Assembly (NCBI RefSeq): GCF_963676685.1 | Contig: NC_092347.1 | Coordinates: forward strand, 98,828,001 to 98,892,000 | DNA: 64,000 bases | Reading direction: 5' to 3' | From: Mytilus edulis | Lineage: Eukaryota | In this document: positions 1,865 to 32,366 of the stretch, piece after piece | Layout: every line of letters begins with the position of its first letter | How positions within the stretch are numbered: position 1 is the first letter of the stretch | Program-made: the position numbers and the translations under genes | Notes under the pieces: model-generated | Databases searched by the model: none | Told to the model about the DNA's origin: nothing | The model's input: only the letters and a program-made list of their open reading frames with translations

Positions 1865-2499
1865 AAGTTAATCACTGTTTTCTCTCATTGACTATGGTCA
1901 ATCCCAAAATGTTACAAGACAAAATGATTCTTTGTAAAAAGATGCTATTATAGATGACGTTCTTCTTTGCAGATCAACAAAAAATTTTTTTTGTGTTTTA
2001 CAGAAATGACAAGATGAACACATATAACGGCCATTTCCGTAAAAACGAGTTCGGAGACATACCAATTTTATTAGCTCATTATAATGCAAATAGTTAGTAA
2101 TTCCGTAAGTTCACAGTTTTTTTTACAAAAACGGTGGACCCGGAAAAGGGATATTTTTTGCTTTTTGTTGCCATGGCAACGGGTTTTTTTTTTTAACCCA
2201 AAAATAAAAAAATCTTGTTTTTTGGATTATTTTTATGATATTTTTAATAAAAATTTATTATTAATGAATGGACCACAATTATTTATACATGTTTTATTTA
2301 GTTTTATTTTCTTTTAGTCACTCGCATACATTATTATTTCAGAAAAATTCAAATACAATTTCCCCTAAAAATCGTTAAAAATCGGAATGTTGAGCTTTTC
2401 AAGACGCTTTTGAGACGGGCGATGTTCGATTTTTCATCATTAAATGATTTGGTACTCCTCCCTGAACAAAATGATGTATCATATTGGTATAATATCACT

Positions 2500-4680
2500 A
2501 AGAAAAAAATGCAGGTTCATGCAAACCTTACCTTAAGTAATGCTATACAATTTTCCTTTTCTGATGTACTGAATGTACCTGCTAACATCAGTGATCGCGA
2601 TGCCTCTGTTATTTTTTTACAAAGTCCAAAGTCCGAAACTAAGTCGTTTAAACGGGAAATATGGTTATATGAAAAAAAACCAGATGTTGATAATTTTTCA
2701 AATATGTTGAATGCAATTGAATGGAAGGAACTCTTTTCCAATGTTGAGGAAGTCGACGAAATGGTCACTATATTCACTGAAAAAAATCCTCAGCATTGCA
2801 AGAAAGAGCATTCCAACCAAAATAGTAACTATACGTGTCAATGACAAACACTGCTTTAACAGTAATATCAGAAAAGCAATTTGAATAAGGGAAAGATTAC
2901 GAAAAAAATCAATTAAATCTAAAAAAGAAACGGATAGTAATAAATATAAGAAACAGAGGAATAAAGTTAATAATATGAAAAGAGAAGCGAAAGAAAAATT
3001 TGAGAAAAACTTGGAAAATATAATTCTAAATAACGCTTCAGATTCTAAGACTTGTTGGAAAATTATGAAAATGCTGATTAAGCCAAATAGAGGATCTAAT
3101 AACATACCCCCATTAAAAAATAGTCTTAATGATCATCGTTTCGAGGAGTTCGCCGATAGAGACGACGAGAAATGCGACATTCTAATTCAGTGTTTTTGTT
3201 TCATTTCATCGCTAGCAGATGTTGATGCTCAATTATCCGATTTCGACAAAACAACTAACAATTTATTGAATGATATAGTGATTAGTACTAGTGAAATTGT
3301 TGACATCATAAAAACTATAAATCCTAAAAAAGCGTCAGGCCCGGATGTCATTAGTCGTAAGATGTTTAAAATATGTCCCGAAAAATTGCAATTCCATTAT
3401 GTATTATACTTAATAAATCCTTGCAGCAGTGCAAATATCCTTAGCCTTATTTAAAAAGGGGGATAGTTCATTACCTTCCAATTATAGACCTATATCACTC
3501 ATTAGTTGCATAGGCAAAGTCATGGAACGTATTGAATATAAACATGTTTACAACCACTTACAAAGATTTGAATTAATTTATGAGTATCAATCGGGTTTTC
3601 TTCCTAAATATTCAACGGTTCACCAACTGTTAGAAATATATAATTGCATATTGAACTCACTTGAAAAGAAAGAGATAAGTTGTTTTGTTTTTTTGCGATT
3701 TTTCCAGAGCCTTTGATAAAGTTTGGCATGATGGTTTATTACATAAAATGAAGGCTTATGGTATAAATGGAAATCTGTTAAAATGGTTTATAAGCTACTT
3801 AAATGATAGAAAACAAAGAATGGTTATCAAGCAATCTTCTTCAAAACTTTGCAGTATTTCAGCTGAAGTTCCGCAAGGGTCGGTCCTTGGACCGTTACTT
3901 TTTATAATATATATTAATGATATTGCAGAAAGACTTATTTCTCTGTGCAGACTCTTTGCAGATGACACATCGTTCAGCTGTGCGGATCGTGATGCTTTTA
4001 AGATAGAAACTGTAATAAACCATGATCTTGAAAAGCTGAACGAATGGTCCAAAAATGGCTAATGTCTTTTAATCCAGACAAAACAGAAATTATGTTATTT
4101 TCTAATGTTGAAACCCCCAAAATGAACTTTATATTCAATGATAAAAATATACCTATTACAAATATTCATAAACATTTAGGGGTTACATTTAGCAATGATG
4201 CTAAATGGAATGCCCACGTTGATAATATTATCTTAAGCACGTCTAAACATATAAATATGCTAAGGAAACTGAAATATAAACTGAGCAGAAAAAAATAAAA
4301 AAACTCTATTTAGTTTTTATAAGACCTTTATTTGAGTATGCAAGTGAAGTTTGGGATAATATTGGGGTAGGTTATGTCAATAAACTGGAGCAATTACAGC
4401 TCCAAGTTGCTAGGATAGTTACGGGGTTACCTATATTCACAAACTCAAGGGTTATTTATGAAGAACGTGGATGGGAAACATAAGCTGAAAGAAGAGAGAG
4501 AAGAAAAATCCAAATGTTTTATAATATTGAGAATAATAATGTTCCAGAATATTTGTCAAATTTAATTCGCCCAAAAATACAAAGTATGACGGTCTATCCT
4601 CTACGCAATGGAAATGACATCATTATTCCATTCTGCAAACGAGCATTAACCAATGATTCTTTTATTCCATCAACCATACG
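2500..4680 (+). pseudogene. Degenerate non-LTR retrotransposon (CR1/L2-group-like) ORF2: end of the endonuclease domain, linker, RT and C-terminus, with frameshifts
   Basis: Successive ORF pieces carry KASGPD, NYRPISL, QSGF, DFSRAFDKVWH, VPQGSVLGPLLF, LFADDT, HKHLGV and SFIPSTIR. There are several frameshifts and stops, and the 3' end is cut off at about 4680. Confidence 0.92.
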
Positions 4681-4849
4681 TCTTATTTTTCGTTTTTTAA
4701 AATTATCTTTTTTTTTTTTTTTGTGTTTCTGTTTTCTTAAAATATTCATTTATTTATTTATATTTTTTTTTCTTTCTGTATTATTATTATTTTGTTTTTT
4801 CTTCAATTTTCCGTCTTTTGATCCATATTTATATATATATATATATATA

Positions 4850-5569
4850 CTAGAACACACCCGTGATATCGCGGGTCCGTGACTGAATTAAAGTATATAA
4901 CTATGCGTAAGCCTTATTTTAGTATTGGTATTGTCATCTGATAAAGTCGTGCAGATTATAAGATACACAGTTTTCTCTGCTTTCAAATCTTTCTGTTTGA
5001 ACCCGTCGACCTGGAACTTTTCAATTATTGGTAATATTCAGGTCCTGGAATTGAGTATTTTTTAATCAACAACATTGTCCAATAAAGTTCAAATCTTTGA
5101 TTCGCTGTTTTGCGTCATGCCCGCTAACAAATTGAAAACTGTACCTATACGCCTTAGTCCAAATCTTTAGTATTCGTATTGTTATCTTAGAAAGTTTTAC
5201 TAATTAAAAAACTACAATAGGGAACAATTTGACAATGATTGAATTTAGTTGTGTCGACTTAGTGATTATGACCCTTGATATAGTAAAATCAAATACACCA
5301 TTTGGTGGTGCGCCTGTTAGATGCGGAACGTACAGATAAGGTAATGGGTAACAGGTGAATATACTTTTGGTATCGGTACCGGATTCGACCCTGAACTTGT
5401 TAATTATTGGCAATATTAATTATGTGGAAAACAAAAGGGTCTGGAGTGGTGTAATTTTTAATCTACACAATTGTCCTATATTAGCTATATATAAAGTTGA
5501 ATTCTTTGATATGTCGTTTTTACCTGATGCCGGCTGATAAATTGGACCTCGTAATTTTAGTATTATAGA
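4850..5569 (-). mobile_element. Non-autonomous Helitron
   Basis: The minus strand starts TCTATAATACTAAAA (5569) and ends CTAG (4850), with a GC hairpin ACCCGTGATATCGCGGGT (4859-4876) near the 3' end. It is inserted between A and T in a (TA)n run with no TSD, and is absent from the paralogous site at ~26290-26320. Confidence 0.9.
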
Positions 5570-5980
5570 TATATATACTTAAAGGAGAAGGAAACCCAAA
5601 TTTTTTTTTTAGCTCAGTTGAAAGAATTATTGTTAATAATAAGGTTTACTGTTTAAAGTTATTCAAAATTATGCTCAGAAATGTCAAACCCGTTAGTTTA
5701 AATATAAAAATTTTAAATTTCCCGCCAATTACTGGAGATCGACATTTTGAGGAGCTCTTCTGTATTGGAGAGTACAGAAGTTGAAATTTGCCACGTCATC
5801 CCTACTGTTCCGGTCTTCTTCTTCTCTTCTTCTTCCAGTTAAGCGGCCGCAATCAACTGTCTGATTATTCTGCCACTGTGTGTTGCGCATGAAAGTCCAA
5901 AGAAAATTTAATATATTTACATTTTGTGAAAGTTAAAATCCTATATACAGGTGCTCATTAAAAACAAATGTTTAGGTCTA

Positions 5981-6780
5981 TTTTGTTAGCCGAGCCTTGA
6001 AGCATTCAAGACTCGGAGCGGTGGTAGTTGAAAGTGGTAAGGCATTCCATTCCCGTATAGATTTTGGATAGAATGACATTTTCCTTATATCTGTTCTGCA
6101 AAGAGGAACCTGGAAACATCCAGTCCTAGTTGTTCTTGATGCTCGGCTTGTTGGAATGAGCCTAGATGTTGCATCTATATTAACTAGGCAGTTAGTAATT
6201 TTGTACATCATGCACATCCTTGTTGTTGTTCTTCTCTCTTCTAGTTGTTGCCACTCGAGTTGTTTTATCATGGCATCTACTGATGATGTGTTACGGTATT
6301 TGTTGGTAACATACCTAGCCCCTCTGCGTTGTACCATCTCAATTTTTTTCTTGTTGTTTTGTTGATGGGGGTCCCAGACTGCGCTTGCATATTCTAGTGT
6401 TGGTCTGACTAATGACTTGTATGCATTTTCTTTTAGTTGTTTGTTACTGATGTTAAGATTTCTTTTTAAGAACCCAATAGTTTTATTTGCTTTTTGGCAG
6501 ATGTTATGTACATGGGTACTCCAATTTAAATCTGAGCTGATTGTAACTCCAAGATATTTTGCGTCTGATACTCTTTCCAGTACATGGCCATGAAGGATAT
6601 AATCATTTGTGATTGGCTTTCTTTTCTTGCTGATGGTCATGACATTGCATTTGTCTGCGTTGAACTTCATGAGCCATCGTTGTTCCCAGTCTGATAATTT
6701 GTTCAGATCCTCCTGCAGTGTTGTGGTATCTGCATCTGATGTTATTGTAAGATAAATGATTGTGTCGTCAGCAAACAACC
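5981..6780 (-). mobile_element. 5'-truncated LINE RT/C-terminal fragment inserted antisense inside the Kolobok element
   Basis: Open frame RLFADDT...KYLGVTI...YKSLVRPTLEYASAVWDP...SFYPKSIREWNALP...FKARL. It is flanked by the direct repeat GGTCTA (5975-5980 and 6781-6786). Confidence 0.9.
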
Positions 6781-6835
6781 GGTCTAACCAGAAGCAACCA
6801 TATTCATCAAACTTTTCTTTCAACAATACGATATT

Positions 6836-9800
6836 ATGCCGTCTTGTCAAGCTATCAATTGTGTAAATGAAAGAGGAAAGTGTGGGAAGAGCTTTTTTGA
6901 AATACCAGATCCGTTAAAATCTAGCGAGAAACGTAAACTCTGCAAACTTTGGATAGATCATTTGCGCAATGATAAACTGAAAATCGAAACTTTTGTGTGG
7001 AGTAAAGGCAGAGTTGTTTGTGAGGAACATTTTGAACAAGATTGTTTTGAAAGGAATCTGATGGCTGAATCCCTGGGGTTTAAATCTGGAAGACTCACAC
7101 TGAAGCCTGGAGCAGTTCCAACCTTAGTAAAACCTGGCCCTGGTGTAGCTGATCGTCAAAAGGAAAGGACTTCTACCAAAATATTTCAGGAGAAGAGACG
7201 GAAGGCACAGGTAATTATGAGAATTTACTTGTTTTTCTGTCAGTCTTGTTTCTTCACATGCTTATGGTCCTACAGATAAAATATAGCATTATAGGGGAAA
7301 GACTATAGTGCACACAGGACACATGAACACATATGTGGAGGATACAAAAAAGGGGGAGGCTGAGTACTGAATTTCTACACTCGGGATGTTGTACTTTAGG
7401 GGATATTTGTAAGCATATCACATAACTTTGTAACTGTACATATATATATATACACCAATTATGAATTATTTTTTATGACCCAATGATGTCACCTGAAAGT
7501 TAAAGAGGGGCGAAAGATACCAAAGGGACATTCAAACTCATAAGTAAAAATAAACTGACAAAGCCATGCCTAAAAAGGAAACAGACAAAGAGTACACTAA
7601 ACACAACATAGAATGAATAATTCATAATTCATAATTCATAAACGAATCCCACCAAAAAGTGGGGGTGATCTCGTGAAAGGGCAGGGGCGGATCCAGCCAT
7701 TTTAAAAAGAGGGTTCCTAACCCCAGACAAAGGGGCGGTTCCAACTATATGTCCCCATTCAAATGCATTGATCATCCTGAAAAAAGGGGGGTTCCAACCC
7801 CCGGACCCCCCCCCCTGGATCCGCCATCGAAGTTCACACTTAAAATTTTCATAAAATCCTGTGTCACACACAACACATTATTTTGCGTCTCTTTCAGGGG
7901 CGGATGCAGGAATTTTCGAAAGGGGGGTGCTAACCCAGGGCAAAGGGGTGGTGCGCACCCCCGGAACCCCCCCCCCCTGGATCCGCCACTGTCTTTGACG
8001 GACGGAGTGGAGCGGTTATAGACCTGCTTTCCCCGTTGGTGACACAGTTACAAAGATTTCTTAACCCTCTTGCTGCCACACGGACATATGTGTCCATCAC
8101 TGATAGCTTGCCACCCGATCACATATGTCCTTTTCAATGACAAAATCACTGGTTTTAATTTTTATGATTACAAAGCTGTTTCTGAAATAAACTTCCTCAT
8201 AAATGATATAAAGTAAAATTTGAATATGTAATGTAGCAATTTCTTAATTTGTGTACTTTTTTAAAACAAATCAAATTGTCTGAATTGTAATTTTAAAGAC
8301 GTCACATTATGCATTTTGAATTTTGAAAATGAAACAAAATACTGTGAACGTCCTAAACTACATGTATTGTGGCGTACGTAACGTTGTTTGAAATTTGAAT
8401 CTGGCAAAAAGAGGGTTAAACACAGAAAAATGTGATGCTGACTATATGTTTACATTCTTTGTTTATTTATGATTCGGTTAAAACTAGCTACAGGTTTCAC
8501 TGTAAAATGCAGTAAACACAACATGTTTTGGGGCTCACAATATCTACTCAATGCTATGTGAAGCATTGAAACACATTGTAAATCAGGTACAATGTATCTT
8601 GGTGAAAAAAAATAATTTGTGAAATACATGTGATGCATCTAATTAGCTTTTATTGATTTCTATCATGTTTTGTATGTTAAAAAAAGTTGTTTCATGTAAA
8701 AAATGTACTGTACATAAAGTCGTAAGTGTACACTGCATGAAGTGTTAAGTACAGGAACACTTTTTCTTTATTTTTGTAAAAAAAAAAAGCTTTTTGATTA
8801 TTTCAGCTCAGAAGTAGTGTAACTGCCTTTGTAAACACCAAGGAAAAAAGTTCCAACAAAAGGACATTGTCAGAAAGTACAGACAGTAAAGCAACAAAAC
8901 CAAAGAAGTTCAAAAGTTCAACTGCAGTTCATCCTCAACAGTCAGATGATATTTCATTTGAGGTAATTTGTGTATATTTTATTAATATTTTCATCGCGGC
9001 CTACTTATCGTCCAACTGGGGTTAGTATAGTCTGTTGAGTTTACTCGACTGACAATCGAACCCCTCGAGTTTTACCTTTTGAACCTACCCGAGTTAATTC
9101 GACATCAACCCTGGGTTGTGGTACAGTGGCGGATCCAGGGGGGGTTCCGGAGGTGCGCACCCCCCCTTTATTTTTGTCGATCAATGCATTTGTATCGGGA
9201 CATATGTTTTGCACCCCCCTTTGCCCTGGGTTAGCACCCCCCCCCCCCTTTCGAAAATTCCTGCATCCGCCCCTGTGGTAGGATTAGTAGAGTTTCAAAA
9301 GGGTGTCAAAAATAAAAATAAAGAAGATTATGCTACAATGACAGACTTTGTATTTAAATGCAGCATAAAAAACGGTTAGTAAAAGAAATTTATTTTTCAA
9401 CTGTATTTTGTCATTTATAGACATTTTTCATGTGTAAAGACTGTCAGTAATGACTTTGTTTAATAATATAAAAAAAACTAAATTTGGTTACTTCGTTTAG
9501 TTTTCTAAGAATGAAATGAAAATTTATTACGAAATGTCATATATACGACAACTAATGCAGTAATGGATAGGCTTTTCGTGAATTTATTACTACCGTACAT
9601 GAAATATGTTGCTAATTTAAATTAAACGCTTGATAAAAATCGAAAATCTACAGACCGGTTCACTGAGTTTCTGTGAAATTTAATGCAGGAACAATTTAAG
9701 AAGGGTAAATTCTAATTAGTTCCTGAGTTATGTTATAATTATATATGTACATAGTCGTTAATACAACGAAAATTATTATTTAGCGTCCATTTTTAGAGTT

Positions 9801-12800
9801 AACTCGATGAAAGTTTTCACTTCGATTCGGTAGAGGTACGCACATGCGCATTAACACTTTGCTACCTGAGTTGGGCGAATCAAAGTAGGCCCTGGACATC
9901 TAAATATATCAACCAAGAGCTCCTGTACATGTCTCCCTTCATGATAAAGGAGATTTATGTTCACAAACTGATTTCAATAATTGTAGAGTCACCTATATGA
10001 CTAAATAATTAAAATATAATATCGACTCAAAAACAACAGTATTTTTTGTGAGAGGAGGTTAATGAATTATCATAACTTCTTGTGGTAACATGAACATGTA
10101 GTCATATACATTTGTACTTGTATATATTTTCTGGGTCAAATATCATTTCTTTTAATCATGTTATATGGCATATATTTAATCATATATGACAGTATACATG
10201 TAACAGCAATGGTATTCTGTCTTGTCTCACAATGATTATGATTTGGGCCTATAATTGCTATAAGTACTGATAAATAAAAAAGACAATAAAATATTTGCTA
10301 CATTTATATGAGTAACATTGCATTATATGTAACTCTGTGAATTATGCCTTTGATACAACAAATCACAAACAGCAATTAATTCAAACCATTCAAATAGCCT
10401 AAGATTGTAGGGTAATATAGGTTTATAATATATATTAAATTTAAGGGTAAGGTAGCTTTAGTGATTAAATGTATCTACTGTAACTTCTTACAATGAAGAT
10501 ACATGTAATATATGACATATACATGTATTTTTTAACAGTTAAAAGTCTTCTTCAGGTAATCATGGCTAAGAAAATTTTAATCAGTACATAGTATAAATTA
10601 ATGTTTCGTGGTCTGCTGAAGCCTGTCTCTGGATGCTGGATTTCTCACGTTGAAGACCCATTGGTGGCATTGAGTTGTTATGTAAATTTTGGTCGGGTTG
10701 TTGTCTCTTTGACACATTCTCTGTTTCCATCCTTTATTCTATGTATGTCAATATTGCAATTTGGCCAAATATTAATATAATATGTATGTTTCCTATTACA
10801 TGCTGAAAATAAATTTTATTTTAAAAAACTTTTTTACATCGTCATAATCTGGGAAAATCCCATTTCCATTATTATCAAGATTCCTACCAGAATTATGCCA
10901 TAAAAAACCTGTAATTTAATCATTATAGTTCAGATTCCATAAAATCCAAGAATTAAAATATGATAAAATATTCAATACATAACTGAAAAACACTGATAAT
11001 TTACTCATGCACTATAGCCATTAGTGAATTCATGTGTTGTTTGGTCCCCCATTGCATATTTTTCTATCTGAATCCTTGCAAGGTTCTCATTTCTGTCAGT
11101 TTTCATATTGACCTCAAACTCATTTCATGGGTCAGTGAACAAGGTGAAGTTTTCTAGGTCAAGTCTATCTCAGATACTATAAGCAATAGGTCTTTTATAT
11201 TTGGCATGTTTGGTGTATGGAATGATTGTAAGGTGTACATGTCCAACTGACATGTGTCATCTGGCCTTGAACTTATTGTCATGGTTCATTGCAATTGGTC
11301 AATGCTTAATTTCTCTGATTTGTACTATTTGTGGTGTATGGAATATTGTATGGTGTGTATGTCTGTCTGGTAGGTGTCAGTTGAACTTTCATGGTTCATT
11401 GGTCAAATTTCAATTTCTTTATGAGGTCTGTTTCTGAGATACTTTTAGCAATAGGTTAACTAAATTTGGTGTATGGAATGATTGTATGGCCTACATATAA
11501 AAAAGAAGATATGGTATGATTGCCAATGAGACAACTCTCCACAAGAGACCAAAATGACACAGAAATTAACAACCATAGGTCACCGTAAAGCCTTCAACCA
11601 TGAGCACAGCTCATACCGCATAGTCAGCTATAAAAGGCCCTGAAATGACAATGTAAAACAATTCAAACAAGAAAACTAACGGCCTTATTTATATAAAAAA
11701 AGGAAAGAAAAACAAATATGTAACACATAAACAAACGACAACCACGTACATGTCTGTCTGAAAGAGTTTATCTCACATTGAACTCGTGTAAAAAGTGTGT
11801 CAACTCTAGTTTTTCTGTAGGGGCATTAAATGTATGCTGATTAAAAAAAATAACATGATTTTATTTTATTTATTGTAGAATGTTCCTGTTCATGCTGAAC
11901 AACATGATAAATTACCTTTATTGACCATACCAGAAATTCTTCCTTGTGGACATCCATGTGAAGTATGCAGAAAAATTAAAGGAGATGAAAATGTATTGGT
12001 TTTTGATCATAGCTACTCAAAATCTAAAGCAGAGGTAGATACGTCTTCAGAAATTCAACATGCCAGTTCTAGTGAAACACCTGCTAAAAAAGACAAACCA
12101 ATCTTCATTTCTTCTACTCCTTTAAAAACTGATTTTCAAAAATGTGCAGTAGAACCAATTTTTACTCCTGTACATATTTTGGATGAGTCTTTTGTAAGTT
12201 TGACACAAGAGGATGATCCAGAAGATGTTGATTACAGTCTAAGTGTTGACCAGGTAGAGTCCGATTCAGACAATTTTGAAAATGACATTTCAACATGCTA
12301 CACCGAAGAGCAGAAGTTAATTAAAGAAAACAAATTTATTGTATTTGAAAGTGCAATTGACACTTTAATCAACAAATTAAAATGCAACATTTGTGAATGT
12401 CCGGTTGATCCAGATGACATTGTTAAAGACTTGTCCAATGGAACTGTAATAACCATCACTGCCAATTGTACCAGTGGACACATAGTTGTAAAATGGAGTT
12501 CACAACCATTCCTTGGCAAGATGCCAGTTGGAAATTTATTAGTTAGTGCTGCAACATTATTCTGTGGTCAAACATACAGCCACATATCACAGTTTGCAGA
12601 ATTTTGTAACTTACAATATATTTCACACACCACCTACAACAAAATTCAAAGACAATATTTAATGCCTGTTGTTCAACACACGTGGTCCTTACTGCAAGAA
12701 GTAGAGTTAAAGAAAATCAAAGAACAAAATCGCCAGATACGGCTAGCAGGTGATGGAAGGTGTGATTCACCAGGTTTTAGTGCAAAGTATTGCACTTATT

Positions 12801-13774
12801 CTCTACTTGATATTGAAACCCAACGCATTATTACATTTGTTGTTGTCAAGGTTACTGAAACTGGGTCATCTTCAAAAATGGAAGTTGAAGGTTTTCGAAG
12901 ATGCATGACTCTTCTGCTTGACATGGGGTTCAGGATTGAGGTGTTAGCTACGGATCGGCATGTTCAGATAAGAAGCATCATGAAGAAGGAATTTCCGGAA
13001 GTGCAACATCAGTTTGATGTTTGGCACTTGTGCAAATCGATTAAAAAAAAGCTAACATTGAAGGCTAAAGGGAAAGGTTGCGAAGATTTAAACCATTGGA
13101 TGAAATCTATTTGTAATCATTTGTGGTGGTGTGCCAGTAATTGTGGTGGAGATAAGGACATTTTGGAAGAAAGCTGGATTTCCATTGTAAATCATACTGT
13201 TGATATACATTCTTTTGAGGGTAAATTCTTCAAGCAATGTGCTCACACACCAATTGAACCTGAAGTGTCTGACACTAAAAAATGGCTTGTAAAAGATTCA
13301 AAAGCCCATAAGGCATTAAAGGAAGTAGTGTTGGACAAGCGTTTGAGAAAGGACATTCGTCAGCTAAATGAATTTTGTCATACAGGAAATTTAGAAGTTT
13401 TTCACAGTCTGTTGCTGAAATATACACCAAAACGCCAGGAATTCGATAATGATCAAATGTGGACACGTACTGCTTTGGCGGTAATTGATCATAATCTTAA
13501 CCAAAATCGTGGTCAAAAGGTCAACAAAGATGGTGAAAAAGCATACAAATTGGTTTGTCCAAAGGCAACTGGGCAATGGGTGGCAAAGCCAGTGTTTAAT
13601 AACAAAAATTATCAGTGGGTATTTGCTATGATCGAAAACGTGTTGGTTCAAAAAGAAACAATGACACTGCCAGTAAAGGAAAGGGCACAGGAAGGAAATA
13701 TTGCTCCTTTGCCTGTTCCCTCAAAATCTGCATTGATTCAGAAACATTTTTCTCGATTTGAAAAATCCAGTTGA
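6836..13774 (+). CDS. Kolobok transposase (THAP zinc finger + DDE + H2CH), 3 exons: 6836-7210, 8807-8962, 11879-13774; 808 aa
   Basis: Exon 1 is a THAP domain (MPSCQAINC...FFEIP...W...VCEEHF...LKPGAVPT). Both GT..AG introns are phase 0 and join the exons in frame with no stops (125+52+631 codons). Exon 3 has LAGDGRCDSPG, LATDRH, QFDVWH, NHTVDIH...CAH and HTGNLEVFHS. Confidence 0.88.
7682..7829 (+). mobile_element. Small GC-rich MITE (CAGGGGCGGATCCAG...CTGGATCCGCC)
   Basis: Terminal inverted GGCGGATCCAG. Related to the elements at 7895 and 9124. The TSD is degraded. Confidence 0.7.
7895..7991 (+). mobile_element. 97-bp MITE with 5-bp TSD TCTTT
   Basis: TCTTT|CAGGGGCGGATGCAGG...CCTGGATCCGCCACTG|TCTTT. 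It is an internal-deletion version of the copy at 9124. Confidence 0.85.
8065..8415. mobile_element. piggyBac-like non-autonomous element
   Basis: TTAA|CCCTCTTGCTGCCA...TGGCAAAAAGAGGG|TTAA; 12 of 14 TIR positions match, with CCC/GGG termini. Confidence 0.78.
8995..9894. mobile_element. Non-autonomous TIR element in transposase intron 2
   Basis: Imperfect ~45-bp inverted ends: GGCCTACTTATCGTCCAACTGGGGTTAG versus reverse complement GGCCTACTTTGATTCGCCCAACTCAGGTAG. The TSD is not clear. Confidence 0.6.
9124..9275 (-). mobile_element. 152-bp MITE with 5-bp TSD TGGTA
   Basis: TGGTA|CAGTGGCGGATCCAGG...CCTGCATCCGCCCCTG|TGGTA. Same family as the copy at 7895, in opposite orientation. Confidence 0.85.
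11070..11800 (+). repeat. Degenerate copy of the 14567-15255 repeat family, with a nested AAAAGAAGATGTGGTATGATTGCC-type repeat (~11498-11746)
   Basis: Shares TTTGGTGTATGGAA and TTTCATGG(G/T)TCA motifs with 14567-15255. The nested piece matches the reverse complement of ~52010-52255. Confidence 0.65.
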
Positions 13775-14566
13775 ATATTTTTCTTGATATAAATATGAAA
13801 CAACCATTTTACTGGGGGTATTTTTTTTGTATCATGCAAGCATCTTTTTTCCCAGCACTGTACATTTGTACAAACATGATAAATTTGTCATTCAGTTCAT
13901 ACATGCAGCATGGTATGAAATCATATAATGTTCTGGTGAGGGTTTTTTTTTTTGGAATGATTGATTTAATTTTTGGTGTTTAATGTCACTTTCAACAATG
14001 AATAATGAATATTTCAGTTTTATTATGAATATAAGGATTAACTTGACCTCGAGTTTCATACCAGAGGGTTTGGTTAAAGTAATTTGATAATAGATATATA
14101 CTGTTCATGTACATGATGTATGTTAATGTGATTACAATGATCATTATATACATGTTTTTCTTTAAAAAAATAAATTTATGCCTTCCCAAATGACATACAT
14201 ACATTTTGTACTTACGAATTTCCATATTTTCTATTTCATTTTGGCTTTATCAAATACTTGCATATAATTTAAGCAGAACATGATTTGCAGTACAGGATGC
14301 AACCCTCTGGCGCACCTTGAAAAGTCGTAAGGTTGTAAGTCCCTGGCGTGGATGTAATATGCTCGTAAACTTGGCCTGCTGCAAATCATATCTTGCATAT
14401 AGTTTGGTTGTTAGGTGAAGGGGGGGGGAGGAGTTTGATTGTATGTATGTTTTTTGGTGAATTATATCATTAGTATATTCAGTTGTTTTCTTCAATCTCT
14501 ACACAGCTTAAAGGATAACTACATTTTGTTTATGTAATGATTATGATGATTGTTTGGTGTACATAG

Positions 14567-15255
14567 TGATCCGGCGGCGGCATTAGCTAACTTCTTAAAA
14601 GCTTTATATTTTAGAAGGCGGAAGACTTCATACTTTGTATATAGATGCCTCATGTTACGAACTTTCTGTCAGTCACATGTCCAATGTCCTTGACCTCATT
14701 TTCATGGTTCAGTGACTACTTGAAAAAAAAGTTAAGATTTTTTGTAATGTTAAATTCTCTCTTATTATAAGTAATAGGATAACTATATTTGGTATGTGCG
14801 TACCTTGCAAGGTCCTCATGCCTGTCAGACAGTTTTCACTGGACCTCGACCTCATCAATGCTCATTTCATGGATCAGTGAACAAGGTTAAGTTTTGGTGG
14901 TCAAGTCCATATTTCAGATACTGTAAGCAGTAGGTCTAGTATATTCGGTGTATGGAAGGACTGTGAGGTGTACATGTCCAACTGGCAGGTGTCATCTGAC
15001 CTTGACCTCATTTTCATGGTTCAGTGGTTATAGTTAAGTTTTTGTGTTTTGGTCTTTTTTTCTAATACTATATGCAATAGGTCAACTATATTTGGTGTAT
15101 GGAAATATTTTATGATCTATATGTCAGTCATGCAGGTTTTATTTGACCTTGACCTCATTGTCATTGCTCAGAGTAATAAAGCTTTATATTTAGGACTCAA
15201 CATAATATCAATGATAAGTAAAGAAGGCGAGACATTTCAGCGTGTGCACTCTTGT
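14567..15255 (+). repeat. Dispersed repeat with internal tandem subunits (TGACCTTGACCTCATTTTCATGG), probably a non-autonomous Helentron-like element
   Basis: About four diverged internal repeats between a GATCCGGCGGCGGC start and an AGCGTGTGCACTCTTGT end. It lies between the two Kolobok genes. The classification is inference. Confidence 0.55.
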
Positions 15256-15515
15256 ATGAATAGAGACATTGGTTTTAGACCACTAAAAGTAAAAAAACAC
15301 CTATGAACTACACCAACAAAAGACTACCACTAAACAACAGGCTCCGGACAGGTGCATATATAAATGCAGTAGTTTTTAATAATTATTCAAAGGCAACAGT
15401 TTATACAAGTTTATATAATTAACAATATATTATTAGCTTCATACAAAACTATCACATTCATGTATAATTTTTGTGTTTCTTTGCAAATCCTTTGTCATTA
15501 TGATTTTAAAACATT

Positions 15516-17049
15516 TCAACAAAACAGTTCTCTCACATCTATAGCAGCTTGAAATCCTGTATAATCATTGTTGTTCTCTGGGAAGGAATCTCTAATGTCT
15601 TTGACAACACAAGAAGGAATTACCACCCTTCTTCCTTTTCCAAGTTTTTCTCCTTTAAGCATCCAACAAATGAATTGTCTGTAAGCAACAAGACGGGATT
15701 GTCTGTAATAAAATATACAAATGAAAATGAAAGCATCAAATATATGATAGATTTTGGAAAAAATGGATTTATCCAAATTTCAACAGAACTGACAATAATG
15801 CATGTAGTTTAATTTATTTCACATGGTCACCAAAGATGAGAAAAGATATATATAGTAACCACTTTACTCCATCTGTCATTCTATCTGTCCAAAAGACATT
15901 GGGCATTAATTATGAAAAAGTCTCCCAACATTGAGCATTTCACGACTAGGCAAACAGCAGTCCTCAAAATAAAACATTGAAAACAAGACTGCAACCAGAA
16001 ACCACTTAACTCGGGGAAAGGCAGGCTGATTCTGCTCAAGAGGTGGTGCTTGATATATGTCTTATATATTAGTACAAATTTGTTGATTTCAGGAAGTCAT
16101 ATTCAAAGAAGAATAGAAAGGGATTGTGGTTATGACATTCAAAAATACATTTTATTAATTTCTGTGTCATTTTGGTCTCTTGTGGAGAGTTGTCTCATGG
16201 CAGTCATACAGCATCTTTTTTATATAGTATCATTCCACTTAAAGACACTCGAAAAATCGGAGCAAATATTATATTTTCTTTTCAATAGAATGAAAGTTAT
16301 GCTGACATTAATAATAGTCACATTCGGTGTATACAGTTCCAAGTTCAGTTGACCCACTCTGACTCATGGTTCCTGTTAAAGTTTGCATTTGTTGGTGAAA
16401 ACTTTGAAAAAAAAAAAAAAAAATAGATTTTTTTGTAATTCACTTTTTTTTTGTCTCATAGTGAGAGAACAATTTCAATTTATAGTAGGCAGTGTTCAAA
16501 CTCATTATTAATCGACGTGTACTTAATGGGAAATGACAATATTAAAATTTTTGAAGGACCACCTCACCCTACACCCCCCCCCCCCCAATATTTTTTAAAA
16601 TAAATTGTCTCTGTGTCTATTATTTGTGCAGACAACCAGATATAAGTTAGTTTGAAAGGAAACCTTTTTATTTAATTCTGGTTAATAAAACTTTTAAAAT
16701 GTCCAAAAATTCACCTGTTGCTCAATTCTTCCGGCGCTCGGCCTTGCTGTCCCTTGTACATCATCATCTGAATGTAAGCCAGTGCTAATACATCGGAATT
16801 TAAAATTAAGGTGTCATAACTATGGTGCATGGTAATGCAGTTGTGGTCTTCCAAGTTCGGTAGCACCAAATCTGATACCCTACAACAAACATTTTCTTCA
16901 AGGGACGGCATTTCCTGACAGTTCCCACACTCGCACCATTCATCCAATGTCTGAACTACAGCTTCAGAAGATGCTAATGCAGCTCTATTTCGATCTTCAA
17001 GTTCTTGAACAGTGAGCTCAGGTTCGAAGTTGTAAGCAACAAGACCCAT
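15516..17049 (-). CDS. KolX-like protein (P2X7 C-terminal ballast/nanor-like Cys-rich domain), 2 exons: 17049-16715 and 15702-15516; 173 aa
   Basis: A phase-2 intron (AACAG|gtga...ttacag|ACAA) joins WCECGNC...ENVCC...CITMH to RLVAYRQFICW...LGKGRRVVIPSCVVKDIRDSFP...YTGF, the motif series of the P2X7 ballast domain. It is convergent with the transposase, as in Kolobok elements. Confidence 0.87.
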
Positions 17050-18913
17050 CTGATTTTGGATATTTCCGCGGTACGTGTGTAAATAGAATTAGTTTTGCAA
17101 AGTTTCAGATGCTGGAACAGGTAAACCGGAACCGTAGGAGTGACGTCAGGGCTAAAACAATAATGGCTGCCTACATGGAGGCGGGAATTTCAAAATTGAT
17201 AATTGTAAAATATTGATTTATTTCATAACGGTACACTTTTTTAACACAAACGTTGTTAAAAATATATTTATATAATAATTTTCTATTAATTTATCCAAAT
17301 TTTTTTTTTTGGTTTCCTTCTCCTTTAATAAATATACCATTCTATACATGCATGCTCATACATATATTTTTGTATTATATTGCTATAAATGTTAAAGAAG
17401 ACTTCATAAATCTGTTTGACTTGTGTCTTATCCAATTTGTACTTAAACAAATGAAATATGTTCAAACTAAAACCGCTCATGTGTCAGAAATCAAGACTAC
17501 GATACACTGTTTTTTCTCACTTTTTGTGCGCTGCAGATTAAATCCAAATAGGACATGTCAACAATAACATTATCATATGAAACATACAATTCAATGGTTT
17601 GCATCGTTATGTTTTTGTTGGTTTGTTGTTTTGTACATATTGAGAAAAGACACATTTAGCTTCGGAGCCGTATTAACAGGCCTAGGGGATAAAATCTAAT
17701 ATTGGTTCTTCGGAGCCGTATTAACAGGCCTAGAGGGAGCCGTATTAACAGGCCTAGGGGATCAAATCTAATATTGGTTCTAAATAGATAAAAGATTAAT
17801 TCAGTGAAAAAAAACGGTATTCATTTAGAGAAACTTTTATGACCTAGGATGAAGTTTCTCGTTCAAATATTTTGACTTGATGTTTTAACAACTCTATTAT
17901 TAATGTATTTTTTTTCCATTGTTCGTTGTATTTATCGACGTTTGTTTCTAACATGATGTTTTGTAATCATAACTAACTAATATATTTGTTTTAAATGACT
18001 CACTGAAAAAGAGCGTTATGAACTCATGAGACTAAATTCAACATAAATTAAATTAAAAACATACATCCATTAGGAAAAAGCAACATATCTAGATCATGTG
18101 TCATTTCTTAAATGTGTTATTTTTGCAAATTTTTAACTAAGAGGGTTAAGGGGAATGACTGAGTTTTACTTCAGATTAGTTCAACAAACATCGAGTCTTG
18201 TGTAGACGAAACGCGCGTCTAGCGTAAATACAAAATTTAACTCTGGTATCTATGAGTTTATCTATATATTTATATTTATCTCAAGTTTAAAAAAAAAAGA
18301 TCTTCTATTTCGAGTAAAACCTTTCGAATCGAACATCAACTGTCGAAACAATCAAAACAATCCTAGCAAACTCTCATTTTATATTAAAATAGCATTTTCT
18401 CTCTAAAACACAATAATACAACTTATGTTTTAACAGTTATTGATTTATATTTGTTGTATACCAATCATGTTATTCTTTTCAATTATCTTACTTTCGTTAA
18501 TACAATTATTTCTAAGAAACACAAATGAATAAAATTACAAAAAAGAGAAATTTATCCTCTACAAAAATGCCTTTATTAATATATTTATTTGATGATGGGT
18601 TTTCTGAAATATAAAATGAATAATTCCACACAACGTGCATGGATCTAAATCGTTTATTTAAGAATTCAAAAAATCTCTGTAAAGTGAAATGTTTTGGCTT
18701 TAATTTTTAGGTAACTTTGGATTAAGATCATCATTTATTTACGCAAATTTTATGTTTTGTCCGTTATTGTTTTAGGCAGACCTAGATAAGCTTTCAGGAA
18801 CAACCAAAAAAACAATAAAAAAGCAATTTAGTAGGTTAGAATTAAATCTGAGGGAATTTAAGGCGATTGGTTTAAAGCATATTAACAAAATATCGTTAAA
18901 AAGTGCAAAAATT

Positions 18914-19965: not shown

Positions 19966-21933
19966 ATTTGCCACAAAGTACTCTTTTTCTATCAAATGCA
20001 ATGAAGCAATATATAATAATGCTTTGCATCAAGTTTCCCCTTGGTATATGTACAAATTGGCCTATCTCTATTATTCATTACATCTGTAGTTTTGATAAAA
20101 TTGAAGTTAAATTCGTTAAAAAATGGCTGCAGAAGGGGCCATAAACCTTAAAGACTTTAAACTGTCGTACGAAGAAATAGTAGAAAAATACAAGTTCGGT
20201 TGTAATCCCCATTTTTTTTTCTAATTAGAATTAAATGCATAACAGTGTGGTCGACAGTAAAACGTTTGTAGGTTGTAACTTGTTTGTCAACGACTATGAT
20301 TTTATGCTCACCCAGTCTGTCAGAGGCCCTCCAGTGGGGATTGAAATATTCACTTGTTACACATTCCGATACAAAGCTTGAAAGGAATTTGTTTTAAATA
20401 TTTATTATAATCATCACATACAACCGTGTCATTTATAAGAATAATAATGTTCAGAGATGATATTATTTAATAATAATAAAAAAATAGGTTTATCCATTGT
20501 AAAAAAAAATATTAAGTTGATGGGGTTAATTCACAAAATATCTCATTGATTAAGAGCACAACTACTTCTACGGTGTGATCATTTAAGAATGGCCTACTAT
20601 TTATTCAATGCGTATACATGTGGGTTTTGTTTGTGAAGAGTTCTGGATAATTAAAAAATCATTTGATTTCTTTGTTTAATACCATAAAACGATTCATTCT
20701 TTCAGATATTTGTCACTTTGCCTTATCTTCAAGTCCAACACAATTTCTCACGTTTCTTACAAAACTTATATTCTTGTGATGTATTCTTTTGTTGGAAAAA
20801 AAATGTATTGATATAGATAGATATAGGAAGATGTGGTATGAGTGCCAATGAGACAACTCTCCTCCCAAGTAATAATTCATAAAAGTAAATCATTATAGGT
20901 CAAGGTACGACCTGCAACACGGAGCCTTGGCTCACACCGAACAGCAAGTTATAGAGGGCCCCAAAACTACTAGTGTAAAACCATTCAAACGGGAAAACCA
21001 ACGAGAAACGAAAAACACATATGAGCTACATAAACAGACGACATCATGCATTGTAACTTTTAAAGCCAATTAAGTAAAAAAAGATAATCTGAAAGAACGT
21101 GCGATATCATATTAGGAAAATACATGGTCAAACCATAACAAAAAATCAAGTAAAGAATTTTAAGTATTCAACCTTTATAGCTTGCTGTTCGGTGTCAGCC
21201 AAGACTCCGTGTTGAAGGCCATTTTTATTTATTTTCAAATTACAAAGGTTATTCCTGATTAGTATTTTTAATTATTTTATTTAGGCGTTTAGAACCTTTG
21301 GTGACCTCACAGTTTAAATTTCTATGATAAGTACGTCGTGAACAGTGGGCATTACAGACGAACGTTCACCTAATTTCCCCCAGTCAATGAATGGCCATAG
21401 CTACACTGTTATGAATTTCATTCTATAAGAAAATTGTATCTGAGGAATTATATACAAATGATCTGCCTAACAGCGACTTCTGTACTTGTACTGTAATAAC
21501 GTAGAAAGCGGAAACTATCTGGTGGCGCATATCTTTAGTCTTACCAAATAAGATAGAAGAGATTTTTTTTAAAGAAAAAGAAGTACAGCAATGACTCATC
21601 CCTCTGCGGTCTTTTTTGTACATTAAATTAAAACCAGGTTCTACCAAACATGTTTTTCTTAAAATGCCCTTAACGAAGGCAGGAATATGGCAGAATTTGT
21701 CAAATTGTCTGTTTCTACGTGTATTGGCGTTTGTATTTTGTTGCAGTTCAGTGTTTCTGTAGTTCCGTTGTTTACAATTTGTTTTTGTGTTTTAATTTGT
21801 AACTTTTGATGAAGGTGGTATACCTCTGTTGCCTTTATTGACCAACAATAGCCAAACTGAATTTCCGGCTATTGCATTCGAGATTCTCTTATTAAGTACT
21901 CTGTAACTAAGAACATTTTTTTTCTATTGCAGA

Positions 21934-22985
21934 ATGCAACTCTTAGTCGGAATTCTCCTGGTTATCTGTAGCGCAGTCAGCGCATCCTATAAAGGAGGAT
22001 ATGGTGGATACGGAGGTGGATACGGAGGATACGGAGGTGGATTCGGTGGAGGATTCGGCGGAGGATTCGGTGGTGGATACGGAAGAGGAATCGGAGGTGG
22101 ATATGGAGGATATGGATTCGGTGGCGGATACGGAGGATACGGTGGCGGATACGGTGGTGGATACGGAGGCGGATATGGAAGAGGAAAAGTTGTTATCGTT
22201 AAAGGCGGTTATGGTGGCGGTTATGGGGGTTATGGTGGTGGATTAGGAGGTGGATATGGTGGTTTCGGAGGTATTGGAGGAGGATATGGTGGTTATGGTG
22301 GTTATGGAGGTGGTTATGGTGGTTATGGTGGTTACGGACGTGGATTCGGTGGATTTGGAGGTTTTGGTGGTGGATATGGTGGAGGATATGGTGGATACGG
22401 ATACGGAAAGGGAAAAGGTAAGATAATTTCTGCAGAAAATATTATTTTGTCTATTATTTTATGACATGATGTTGATAGCTATTCAAGTACAAGATACATG
22501 ATGTTGATAGCTATTCAAGTACAAGACAGACATAACTCAGAACTTACAGAACTTTGAAAAACTAATTTCAGTTAAACCTCAATAAGAATTACTTGTAATA
22601 TCCATTTGTTATTGATTATATGCTAATTTGTTATTGTTTTCACACAATTCCGTATTGTTGTTTTTAAATAGGTACGTGAAATATTACTTCACCAATCTGT
22701 AATAGACTATTTTCATGTTACCGACTTTTGACTCCTGAGTTATTATTTTTTGACCGGTTACCTTCTCCAATGTTGGACATTATGGAACTCACTTATTGTT
22801 TATTTTCGTAAACAATACCCATTAAAATGTGTATTTACCATGTTTACCGATCATAAAAAAAATAAATACTGCTGAGGCAATAAATAAACTTAAATAAAAC
22901 AACAATCCGAAAAACAAAAAGATATCTTTGTAAAGCGAAAGTTATGCTATGATAACATTATGTTCTTTATTTTGCAGGATATTAA
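21934..22985 (+). CDS. Secreted Gly/Tyr-rich structural protein, copy 1 (coding exons 21934-22417 and 22978-22985; 163 aa ending GKGKGY)
   Basis: Acceptor ttgcag|A-ATG, signal peptide MQLLVGILLVICSAVSA, GGY/GGF repeats, central GKVVIVKG, donor AAAG|gtaag, last exon ttgcag|GA TAT TAA. Confidence 0.9.
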
Positions 22986-23169
22986 ACACAGAATCTAACC
23001 CAGAACGGACAACGAATGCTTTTCTTTTTTACATTTCTGATATAAAATATAATCGTTGCATTTAATTTGTGTTGTTTTACCTTCTTTCATAAATCTACAG
23101 TCCCTTTATAGACTTAACCTCATAGAATCAAATCGACTAAACTGTGTGAGAAAGCAAGTCAACCTCGAA

Positions 23170-23430
23170 AAGATCATCTTAATATTTAGAGTTCTCGATG
23201 CTACACATTGCTATTCCCTATACTGGATTAAAAGATCATCTTAATATTTAGAGTTCTCAACGCTTCACATTGCTATTCCCTATAATCGATTGAAAGACCA
23301 TCTTAATATTTAGAGTTTTCAACGCTTCACATTGCTATTCCCTATAATCGATTGAATGATCATCTAAATATTTAGAGTTCACAAGTTAATCTCAACGCTT
23401 TACATTGCTATTCCCTATACTCGTTTGAAG
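23170..23430 (+). repeat. 62-bp minisatellite B, 4 copies, downstream of gene 1
   Basis: Unit AAGATCATCTTAATATTTAGAGTTCTCAACGCTTCACATTGCTATTCCCTATAATCGATTGA at 23170, 23232, 23294 and 23356. Confidence 0.9.
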
Positions 23431-26400: not shown

Positions 26401-26637
26401 TAAGTCTGTTTGACTTGTGTCTTATCCAATTTGTACTTAAACAAATAAAATATGTTTAACTAAAACCGCTCATGTGTCAGAAATCAAGACTACGATACAC
26501 GTCAGCTCTTTTTTCTCACTTTTTGTGCGCTGCAGATTAAATCCAAATAGGACATGTCAACAATAACATTTTAATATGAAACATACAATTCAATGGTTTG
26601 TATCGTTATGTTTTTGTTGGTTTGTTGTTTTGTACAT

Positions 26638-28001
26638 ATTGAGGGAAGACACATTTAGCTTCGGAGCCGTATTGACAGGCCTAGGGGATCAAATCAAATA
26701 TTGAGGGAAGACACATTTTGCTTCGGAGCCGTATTAACAGGCCTAGGGGATCAAATCAAATATTGAGGGAAGACACATTTAGCTTCGGAGCCGTATTGAC
26801 AGGCCTAGGGGATCAAATCAAATATTGAGGGAAGACACATTTAGCTTTGGAGCCGTATTGACAGGCCTAGGGGATCAAATCAAATATTGAGGGAAGACAC
26901 ATTTAGCTTCGGAGCCGTATTAACAGGCCTAGGGGATCAAATCAAATATTGAGGGAAGACACATTTAGCTTCGGAGCCGTATTGACAGGCCTAGGGGATC
27001 AAATCAAATATTGAGGGAAGACACATTTAGCTTCGGAGCCGTATTGACAGGCCTAGGGGATCAAATCAAATATTGAGGGAAGACACATTTAGCTTCGGAG
27101 CCGTATTGACAGGCCTAGGGGATCAAATCAAATATTGAGGGAAGACACATTTAGCTTCGGAGCCGTATTAACAGGCCTAGGGGATCAAATCAAATATTGA
27201 GGGAAGACACATTTAGCTTCGGAGCCGTATTGACAGGCCTAGGGGATCAAATCAAAAATTGAGGGAAGACACATTTAGCTTCGGAGCCGTATTAACAGGC
27301 CTAGGGGATCAAATCAAATATTGAGGGAAGACACATTTAGCTTCGGAGCCGTATTGACAGGCCTAGGGGATCAAATCTAATATTGAGGGAAGACACATTT
27401 AGCTTCGGAACCGTATTGACAGGCCTAGGGGATCAAATCAAATATTGAGGGAAGACACATTTAGCTTCGGAGCCGTATTGACAGGCCTAGGGGATCAAAT
27501 CAAATATTGAGGGAAGACACATTTAGCTTCGGAGCCGTATTGACAGGCCTACGGGATCAAAACTTATATTGAGGGAAGACACATTTAGCTTCGGAGCCGT
27601 ATTGACAGGTCTAGGGGATCAAATCTAATATTGAGGGAAGACACATTTAGCTTCGGAGCCGTATTGACAGGCCTAGGGGATCAAATCAAATATTGAGGGA
27701 AGACACATTTAGCTTCGGAGCCGTATTGACAGGCCTAGGGGATCAAATCTAATATTGAGGGAAGACACATTTAGCTTCGGAGCCGTATTGACAGGCCTAG
27801 GGGATCAAATCTAATATTGAGGGAAGACACATTTAGCTTCGGAGCCGTATTAACAGGCCTAGGGGATCAAATCTAATATTGAGGGAAGACACATTTTGCT
27901 TCGGAACCGTATTAACAGGCCTAGGGGATCAAATCTAATATTGAGGGAAGACACATTTTGCTTCGGAACCGTATTAACAGGCCTAGGGGATCAAATCTGA
28001 T
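26638..28001 (+). repeat. 62-bp minisatellite A, 22 near-identical head-to-tail copies
   Basis: Unit ATTGAGGGAAGACACATTTAGCTTCGGAGCCGTATT(G/A)ACAGGCCTAGGGGATCAAATC(A/T)AAT. First and last unit starts differ by exactly 21x62 bp. There are no spacers. Confidence 0.97.
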
Positions 28002-28515
28002 ATTGGTTCTAAATAGATAAAAGATTAAATCAGTGAAAAAAACGGCATTCACTTAGAGAAACTTTTATGACCTAGGATGAAGTTTCTCGTTCAAATATTT
28101 TGACTTGATGTTTTAACAACTCTATTCTTAATGTATTTTTTTCTCATCAAAGATCGAGTTAACTGAAAAGTCTCTGAAAGTGGAATGAAACGAGGAATAT
28201 AGTCTGAATAAATATACATTTATTGACAAAAAAGTTTTTGTATTCTAGTAGATCAGAAAGAATCCGTTTGCAAAGGATATAGTGCAAGGATAAATTTTTC
28301 CATTGTTTGTTGTATTTAACGACGTTTGTTTCTAACATGACGTTTTGTAATCATAATCAACTAATATATTTGTTTTATATGACTCACCGAAGAAGAGCGT
28401 TATAAACTCATGAGACTAAATTCACCCCAAATTAAATTAAAAACATACATCAATTTGGAAAAAGCAACATAGCTAGGCTATCAAGATCATGTGTCATTTC
28501 TTAAATGTGTTATTT

Positions 28516-30110: not shown

Positions 30111-30819
30111 GTAAGTGTCTTTAGTCTATCATTAACTGTATTGTCTGTAACGCTGTTGAACTGTGGACTCAATCAAGTATTTTATTTTCGTACAAAAATG
30201 GCTACAGAAGGGGTCATAAACCTTAAAGACTTTAAACTGTCGTACGAAGAAATAGTAGAAAAATACAAGTTCGGTTGTAATCACCATTTTTCTTTCTAAT
30301 TATAAGAAAATTGTATCTGAGGAATTATATACAAATGATTTGCATAACAGCGACTTCTGTACTTGAACTGTAATAACGTAGAAAGGGGAAACTATTTGGT
30401 GGCGCATATCTTTAGTCTTACCAAATAAGATATAAGAGATTTTATTTTTTTTAAAGAAAAAGAAGTACAGCTATGACTCATCCCTTTGCTGTCTTTTTTG
30501 TGCATTAAAATAAAACCAGGTTCTACCAAACATGTTTTTCTTAAAATGCCCTGAACGAAGGCAGGAATATGGCAGAATTTGTCAAATAGTCTGTTTTTAT
30601 GTGTATTGGCGTTTGTATTTTGTTGCAGTTCAGTGTTTCTGTAGTTCCGTTGTTTACAATTTGTTAATGATGTGTTTTAATTTGTAACTTTTGATGAAGG
30701 TGGTATACCTCTGTTGCCTTTATTGAACAACAATACCCAAACTGAATTTCCGGCTATTGCATTCGAGATTCTCTTATTAAGTACTCTGTAACTAAGAACA
30801 TTTTTTTTTCTATTGCAGA

Positions 30820-31872: not shown

Positions 31873-32056
31873 ACACAGAATCTAACCCAGAACGGACAAC
31901 TAATGCTTTTCTTTTTTACATTTCTGATATAAAATATAATCGTTGCATTCAATTTGTGTTGTTTTACCTTCTTTCATAAATCTACAGTCCCTTTATAGAC
32001 TTAACCTCATAGAATCATATCGACTTAACTGCGTGAGAAAGGAAGTCAACCTCGAA

Positions 32057-32366
32057 AAGATCATCTTAATATTAAGAGTTCTCCATGCTACACATTGCTA
32101 TTCCCTATACTAGATTGAAAGATCATCTTAACATTTAGAGTTCTCAACGCTTCACATTGCTATTCCCTATAATCGATTGAAAGACCATCTTAATATTTAG
32201 AGTTCTCAACGCTTCACATTGCTATTCCCTATAATCGATTGAACGATCACCTTAATATTTAGAGTTCTCAACGTTTCACATTGCTATTCCCTATAATCGA
32301 TTAAATGATCATCTAAATATTGAGAGTTCTCAACGCTTCACATTGCTATTCCCTATACTCGATTGA
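32057..32366 (+). repeat. 62-bp minisatellite B, 5 copies, downstream of gene 2
   Basis: Units at 32057, 32119, 32181, 32243 and 32305; paralog of the array at 23170. Confidence 0.9.

Follow-up and report, generated by a model that had tools for sequence, protein, structure and literature searches.

A two-gene Kolobok0 transposon of the mussel Mytilus edulis that probably carries older repeats as cargo

The hallmarks of the DNA transposons in the Kolobok superfamily are a TTAA target-site duplication, termini of the 5'-RR/YY-3' type (R, purine; Y, pyrimidine), a DDD/E transposase with a C/DxxH motif, and a zinc finger between the catalytic residues (PMC9587614). One lineage, Kol0 or Kolobok0, also carries a second gene, KolX, the proposed source of the ballast domain of P2X7 (PMC9587614). 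The XKol transposases of Xenopus include active as well as domesticated members, with open reading frames (ORFs) kept by selection (PMC6004289). A 64,000-nucleotide stretch of the Mytilus edulis genome (NC_092347.1, positions 98,828,001 to 98,892,000, called the window below) contains an 11.7-kb Kolobok element at 5583-17324. Taken as a whole, it is highly probable that the element is a copy from a low-copy Kolobok0 family with both of its convergent genes intact, that the family has likely moved recently by cut-and-paste into TTAA sites, that ten old repeats were inherited within it as cargo, and that the window copy has likely been crippled for transposase by a young long interspersed element (LINE).

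Structure, genes and class of the element

The element is bounded by perfect 14-bp terminal inverted repeats (TIRs), AGGAGAAGGAAACC, with a mismatch at base 15. The 4-bp TTAA duplication is present at both ends, as it is in the sister copy C3a described below. Among the three TTAA-flanked 14-nt inverted pairs in the window, this is the only one that encloses genes. The termini read AG...CT, in keeping with the RR/YY type and different from the YY start of piggyBac; the element itself does not combine TTAA with a YY or CC start, and only the nested piece at 8065-8415 has CCCT ends. The marks of the KolobokP, E, D and H groups are absent as well, with no terminal direct repeats in the element and no nuclease or helicase accessory domain in a Pfam search. 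The mark of Kolobok0, a KolX gene with similarity to the P2X7 ballast, is present as a P2RX7_C match (PF20478) on both exons of the second gene. Judged by these described features, and not by a DDE tree with Repbase families, the element is a genuine Kolobok0 member; the kind is already known and this is an additional member of it. With Kolobok-1_XT, the type element of Kol0 (Kojima et al., PMC9587614), it has in common the TTAA, the RR/YY termini, the DDD/E residues, the C/DxxH motif, the zinc finger, and a KolX with the P2X7 ballast fold. At 11.7 kb it exceeds the 4.1-8.1 kb of the full-length relatives found in this analysis, because the two transposase introns, the KolX intron and the intergenic gap hold 3.5 kb of nested repeats. 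The earlier note on this DNA had described a full-length two-gene Kolobok with both spliced ORFs intact, and that description stands: the TIRs, the TTAA, and frames of 808 and 173 aa without internal stops are all there.

The transposase gene has three exons and two GT-AG introns, and its 808 codons are followed by a stop (Table 1). Pfam finds a THAP domain (PF05485, E=1.6e-13) in exon 1 and a Mutator-like transposase (E=1.1e-11) in exon 3. The N-terminal THAP domain has the C2CH residues and a box of the AVPTIF type, here AVPTL. The catalytic triad is D469, D536 and E683, with D557xxH560 after the second D, and the H2CH finger (H616, H621, C631, H633), which lies between the DxxH and the catalytic E, is invariant in 16 of 16 aligned sequences. 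The transposase fold is predicted with a pLDDT (predicted local distance difference test score) of 80. The best structural match of the catalytic-region model is the ISCth4 transposase (PDB 6xgx; E=2.9e-4, template modeling score ~0.3, 13% identity), of the IS256/Mutator group. Here the likeness is one of predicted catalytic fold, whereas ISCth4 is prokaryotic and comes without THAP or KolX. The closest named proteins are those of Mytilus coruscus, at 90-94%. The XKol transposases of Xenopus likewise have the DDE residues, a THAP domain with C2CH and AVPTIF box, and the H2CH finger (PMC6004289). Their genes are described as single long ORFs, with introns unmentioned in the text of that paper, whereas the mussel gene is spliced and is seen within a whole element. 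Ratios of nonsynonymous to synonymous substitution (dN/dS) against decayed copies are mixed, at 0.13-0.63 over few sites. Because of what is known for DDE transposases, the THAP domain would be expected to bind the element ends, and the D469-D536-E683 core would excise the element and then integrate it into TTAA.

KolX runs on the opposite strand, tail to tail with the transposase, and encodes 173 aa in two exons. The two exons match consecutive parts of the P2RX7_C profile (59-126 and 144-192), and the PDB offers weak P2X7 matches (E=0.027). All seven relatives examined, from the mussel's own genome and from metagenome contigs, have an intron at roughly this codon, with a clear GT-AG in five and an offset in two. 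Judging only by its cysteines of the ballast type and by its constant association with the transposase, KolX is most likely a zinc-binding accessory or regulator of transposition. The gene is not always arranged in this way. A distant Kolobok0 family in the same genome (L035-L051, ~40% identity) has an intronless KolX, and in L129, L130 and L132 the two genes stand head to head, with KolX upstream of the THAP gene; L132 also has a long terminal inverted repeat and is without the end motifs discussed below. In public run X24, a few exon-3 reads (12672-13883) are oriented as the KolX-exon reads are, which hints weakly that KolX transcripts may read through in antisense to the transposase.

A complete, spliced and apparently young element of this kind suits the study of Kolobok0 transposition and of the role of KolX. 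In the titles and abstract openings found, subscription papers aside, there is no transposition assay for the Kolobok0 group.

Sister copies, inherited repeats and a private LINE

The mussel's own genome was searched with exon 3 and both element ends. A complete sister, C3a (C3:87051426-87062381, 10,956 bp), has different flanks and is 99.9% identical to the window copy in coding DNA. The two differ by 41 substitutions and 24 indels, of which two substitutions and one indel are in coding DNA. Counting clean substitutions, there are 2 in 2,946 coding and 23 in 7,827 noncoding nucleotides (p=0.018), a modest contrast. Fragments C3b, C8, C14a, C6 and C11b stand at ~88-99% and a second subfamily at ~70%. 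Stops, frameshifts or insertions are present in C3b, C8 and C14a, and among the assembly copies found, the window copy alone has both frames unbroken. Right-end fragments at L023:1406 and L024:8229, on C248 and C14, have identical flanks and are likely allelic or a duplicated scaffold.

The transposase family also turns up in public sequencing data, where 20 runs with four organism labels contain 94-97% of the exon-3 words. None of the runs listed there is recorded as RNA, which speaks neither for nor against transcription. Horizontal transfer of the family was considered and found unsupported, as the four labels could belong to close relatives. Both transposase introns are exactly joined in contigs of runs X1, X2 and X8, from three studies and three organism labels; X19 covers the introns and has no splice joint. 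The X1 contig skips the LINE site and has the C3a alleles at 6812 and 12190 (the window copy has 6812C and 12190T), and X2, X8 and X19 do not differ from C3a at these positions. No transcript of the window copy was seen among the contigs of these four runs, whose alleles are the sister's. The first 268 nt of the X1 contig match neither the window flank nor the C3a flank, and therefore indicate a third insertion site. Thus, of the junctions that the earlier note had put forward for checking, 7210/8807 and 8962/11879 are found spliced, but 16715/15702 of KolX was not seen in RNA and has only its conserved intron position in relatives to its credit. Recent activity of the family, proposed at the same time, is likely in view of the near-identical C3a at another TTAA site, the third flank in X1 and the spliced transposase contigs.

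Eleven nested pieces were delimited, with a total of 3,502 nt or 30% of the element. All 11 are outside the coding exons, and so the claim that every nested insertion falls in untranslated region, intron or gap holds. For all ten non-LINE pieces, both junctions are present in C3a; C3b, within its covered part, has four pieces with both their junctions and a fifth with one. Some pieces are far from their own genomic families (74% for the piggyBac-like piece, 81% for 10589-10745), while the window copy and C3a are 97-99% identical over the intron stretches around them, as inherited cargo would be expected to be. Since ten of the 11 are common to the sister C3a, they are read as inherited cargo. 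Miniature inverted-repeat transposable element (MITE) 3 is absent from the older copies C8 and C14a, and the cargo was therefore acquired stepwise. In a lineage that keeps replicating, only those insertions would persist that are kept out of both frames by splicing or by a place in the intergenic gap. The repeat labelled Helentron-like in the earlier note is a high-copy one, with 4,917 candidates; subterminal inverted repeats, a 3' palindrome and a T-rich target without duplication are the features given for HINE/Helentron elements (PMC4067079). The Kolobok copies compared here show an intron-bearing DNA transposon swelling by inheritance of other elements.

The idea that the nested repeats are cargo of a master element holds for these ten pieces but fails for the LINE, whose site is empty in all four Kolobok copies that cover it. 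This empty site, a 7-bp duplication, an unbroken reverse transcriptase (RT) frame and 99% identity to three other genomic LINE copies are the reasons to call the LINE young and copy-specific, not cargo. Its end is ~50 nt short of the transposase ATG, and on the transcribed strand it places 24 additional ATGs between the predicted promoter and the start codon. In X2 and X8 the main contigs start at ~5809-5813, which is the LINE insertion point and weakly hints at a start site. The LINE likely cuts the transposase gene of the window copy off from its predicted promoter, and this copy would have taken the later hit at the predicted start site itself. With 24 upstream ATGs, it would therefore mostly move with transposase from LINE-less sisters. 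The LINE's position in the untranslated region is probably harmful and not neutral, and insertions that spare coding DNA need not be harmless.

Two other accounts of the copies have to be weighed. In one, every nested piece including the LINE is harmless cargo and the window copy is the active master, as its unique pair of unbroken frames and the noncoding position of the LINE could suggest. However, the empty site largely refutes this for the LINE, the spliced contigs skip the LINE and carry C3a-type alleles, and the added ATGs lie upstream of the transposase start, which leaves this account highly improbable. In the other, a segmental duplication or an artefact of haplotypes accounts for the near-identical copies, and a domesticated, non-mobile host gene pair for the intact frames. 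In Xenopus, domestication of Kolobok transposases is common (PMC6004289), and the window copy and C3a differ less in coding than in noncoding DNA. Yet the identity of the two copies ends exactly at the TTAA on both sides, where the flanks begin to differ, a third flank appears in X1, and the other copies are decayed with stops and frameshifts; this account too is very unlikely.

The preferred account, a mobile low-copy family whose window copy bears cargo and a later LINE, has several points against it. The assembly yielded only two complete copies of the subfamily, one of which, C3a, has a coding frameshift of 1 nt in a T-run that is one base short; all four runs aligned to C3a read the in-frame length, so the deletion is either an assembly error or private to C3a. 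The selection test dropped 16 of the 41 substitutions, as they are close to indels or part of a MITE cluster. The RNA status of X1, X2 and X8 is a guess, and three recorded RNA runs (X22-X24, ~6% of each read) give an exon depth of at most 5 and no splice joint among the matches listed. The KolX exons are without cover in the X1 contigs, on top of the KolX junction not seen in RNA. How the LINE affects expression is a matter of inference, and contigs cannot show where a transcript starts. No excision or new insertion event was observed; the signs of activity are C3a, the third flank in X1 and the spliced contigs.

End motifs and an HCF-1-binding motif

Both ends of the element have the same inward-facing array, with TTCCCGCC ~136 nt in, followed by ACGTCA and then TTCCGG. 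These end boxes resemble consensus sites of the YY1, E2F, cAMP response element (CRE) and ETS types. Genome-wide, the right-end pattern is found 10 times, always at or beside a known Kolobok end or KolX match, and never reversed. Six full-length metagenome elements have, at both ends, a [C/T]CGCCAT box at 132-157 nt and, further in, a TGACGT/ACGTCA box; the four of them checked have a protein identity of 42-43%. A two-box test defined after seeing these ends is passed by at most 0.3% of dinucleotide shuffles. In a tally that kept 58 of 83 candidate ends, own-genome ends included, there are 22 distinct end types: 14 have the CCGCC...TGACGTCA pair, 18 the TGACGT box, and 4 neither. A cell-cycle site of the CDE/CHR-E2F type (cell-cycle-dependent element/cell-cycle genes homology region) was rejected as an explanation, as only three subfamilies of this genome have its TTTRAA part and distant elements keep only CCGCCAT and TGACGTCA. 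In the distant family L035-L051, CCGCCATTTTG is at position 143 of the left ends of several copies, and the right end has a TGACGT box only.

The transposase has a motif of its own to add. Host THAP proteins carry an HCF-1-binding motif with the consensus D/E-H-x-Y (PMC13631171, PMC10824691, PMC3668359), and at human promoters HCF-1 is found together with YY1, GABP and THAP11 (PMC3668359). In the mussel transposase, DHSY lies in the variable linker, ~100 aa before the catalytic core. Of 120 homologues listed, 73 have a linker of at least 100 aa, and 48 of these 73 have D/E-H-x-Y before the core, against 1.3 expected by shuffling; six control patterns reach at most 2. A Xenopus homologue (P0120, 35%) carries DHTY. 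The reading of DHxY as no more than a zinc ligand for a neighbouring CxxC fails as a general explanation, since 31 of the 48 have no CxxC within 25 aa. Motif and end boxes are not strictly coupled, as L068 and L070 have the end motifs and no DHxY in the 220 aa upstream of the core, and DHxY falls within the same exon in only 9 of 26 metagenome frames. The host genome has an HCF-1 gene, one exon of which is 99% identical to a Mytilus protein. The layout resembles that of human THAP proteins including THAP9, which have an N-terminal THAP domain followed by D/E-H-x-Y (PMC13631171, PMC10824691); the human proteins are products of host genes, whereas here the motif is within a mobile Kolobok transposase and its binding of HCF-1 is putative. 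The motif does not always bind, THAP5 being an example. Because a motif of this kind is already present in THAP9 and not every carrier binds HCF-1, DHxY remains a lead only. The same linkers hold a further motif, TQT, in 26 of 73 homologues (P0001-P0120) against 5.5 expected; it is absent from the window protein, and we take it to resemble the LC8 dynein-light-chain motif.

Together, DHxY and the twin end motifs suggest twin promoters that the transposase itself may control. One could tentatively propose that Kolobok0 transposases act as transcription factors for their own element: DHxY, kept from mussel to amphibian, may recruit host HCF-1, and an inward housekeeping-type promoter (YY1-type CCGCCATNTT with TGACGTCA) ~135-210 nt inside each TIR may drive the transposase on the left and KolX on the right. 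This is a possibility that we hold with reserve. We give similar weight to the competing idea that the CCGCC and TGACGTCA boxes are binding sites of the transposase, by way of its THAP domain, for end pairing and not host-factor promoter elements. Such sites would fit the near-constant distance of the boxes to the terminus (CCGCC at 132-155 nt) and their variable distance to the ATG. However, the boxes point inward before an ATG at both ends, they resemble YY1 and CRE consensus sites, and two contigs start just behind the left array, which is a weak hint. The two roles are not mutually exclusive.

No publication tying Kolobok to YY1 or HCF was found, subscription journals, Repbase and supplements aside, and the literature matches for Kolobok with E2F or with subterminal promoter motifs concern other subjects by title and abstract. 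The conserved HCF-1-binding motif and the twin end motifs offer leads, open to testing, on the way these elements may control their own expression. If the promoter proposal is true, the arrangement of THAP domain and HCF-1-binding motif known from host THAP transcription factors would already be present, under selection, in a mobile transposase, and the expressed mussel family would be a ready system for self-regulation and KolX function.

Feature coordinates and neighbouring sequences

Table 1. Features in and around the element, numbered from the first nucleotide of the window
Feature	Position	Strand	Remarks
Left TTAA target-site duplication	5579..5582	.	
Left 14-bp TIR	5583..5596	+	starts AG (RR)
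Left subterminal array	5712..5813	+	TTTAAATTTCCCGCC (5712), ACGTCA (5793), TTCCGG (5808); predicted transposase promoter and/or transposase-binding site
5'-truncated LINE	5817..6778	-	unbroken RT C-terminal frame; 7-bp duplication CCGGTCT (5810-5816, 6779-6785)
Transposase exon 1	6836..7210	+	THAP domain (C4, C9, C62, H65, AVPTL), by Pfam and residues
Intron 1, GT-AG	7211..8806	+	spliced in RNA-type contigs
Dispersed repeat fragment	7502..7681	.	left junction common to C3a, C6, C14a
GC-rich MITE 1	7682..7826	.	also in C3a
GC-rich MITE 2	7895..7990	.	also in C3a
piggyBac-like remnant	8065..8415	.	TTAA-CCCT...AGGG-TTAA; best dispersed relative 74%; in C3a; covered by run X19
Transposase exon 2	8807..8962	+	
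Intron 2, GT-AG	8963..11878	+	spliced in RNA-type contigs
GC-rich MITE 3	9124..9275	.	in C3a; empty site in older C8, C14a
Dispersed repeat	10589..10745	.	81% to genomic family; common to C3a, C3b
Decayed copy of ~150-bp-unit high-copy repeat	11074..11494	.	earlier label Helentron-like; common to C3a, C3b
Common dispersed repeat	11495..11749	.	common to C3a, C3b
Transposase exon 3	11879..13774	+	D469, D536, DxxH 557-560, H2CH 616-633, E683; stop 13772-13774
DHSY (aa 220-223)	12005..12016	+	HCF-1-binding-motif consensus; in 48/73 homologues
High-copy repeat in intergenic gap	14563..15255	.	~92% to family; in C3a
KolX exon 2 incl. stop	15516..15702	-	P2RX7_C
KolX intron, GT-AG	15703..16714	-	with C3a-shared repeat fragment 16152-16229
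KolX exon 1	16715..17049	-	Cys-rich, P2X7-ballast-like
Right subterminal array	17126..17194	-	TTTGAAATTCCCGCC, TGACGTCA, TTCCGG; predicted KolX promoter
Right 14-bp TIR	17311..17324	-	
Right TTAA target-site duplication	17325..17328	.	

The two further TTAA-flanked 14-nt inverted pairs in the window, at 44522-44867 and 54556-54941, are ~350-390 bp apart and are possibly small non-autonomous elements. To the left of the Kolobok element lies a decayed LINE (2302-4882, + strand) with RT-like fragments in several frames. To its right, four tandem paralogous exons on the + strand (21907-22464, 30796-31383, 45520-46209 and 58055-58687) encode a Gly/Tyr-rich protein. They start in a signal-peptide-like manner (MQLLVGILLVICSAVSA), and are likely a cluster of structural proteins of the shell or byssus. 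Arrays of a 62-bp unit are found at 26636-28005, 23168-23384, 32056-32368 and 17664-17781. The one at 26636 has 22 copies of the unit at 97%, with related units near 17.7 kb.

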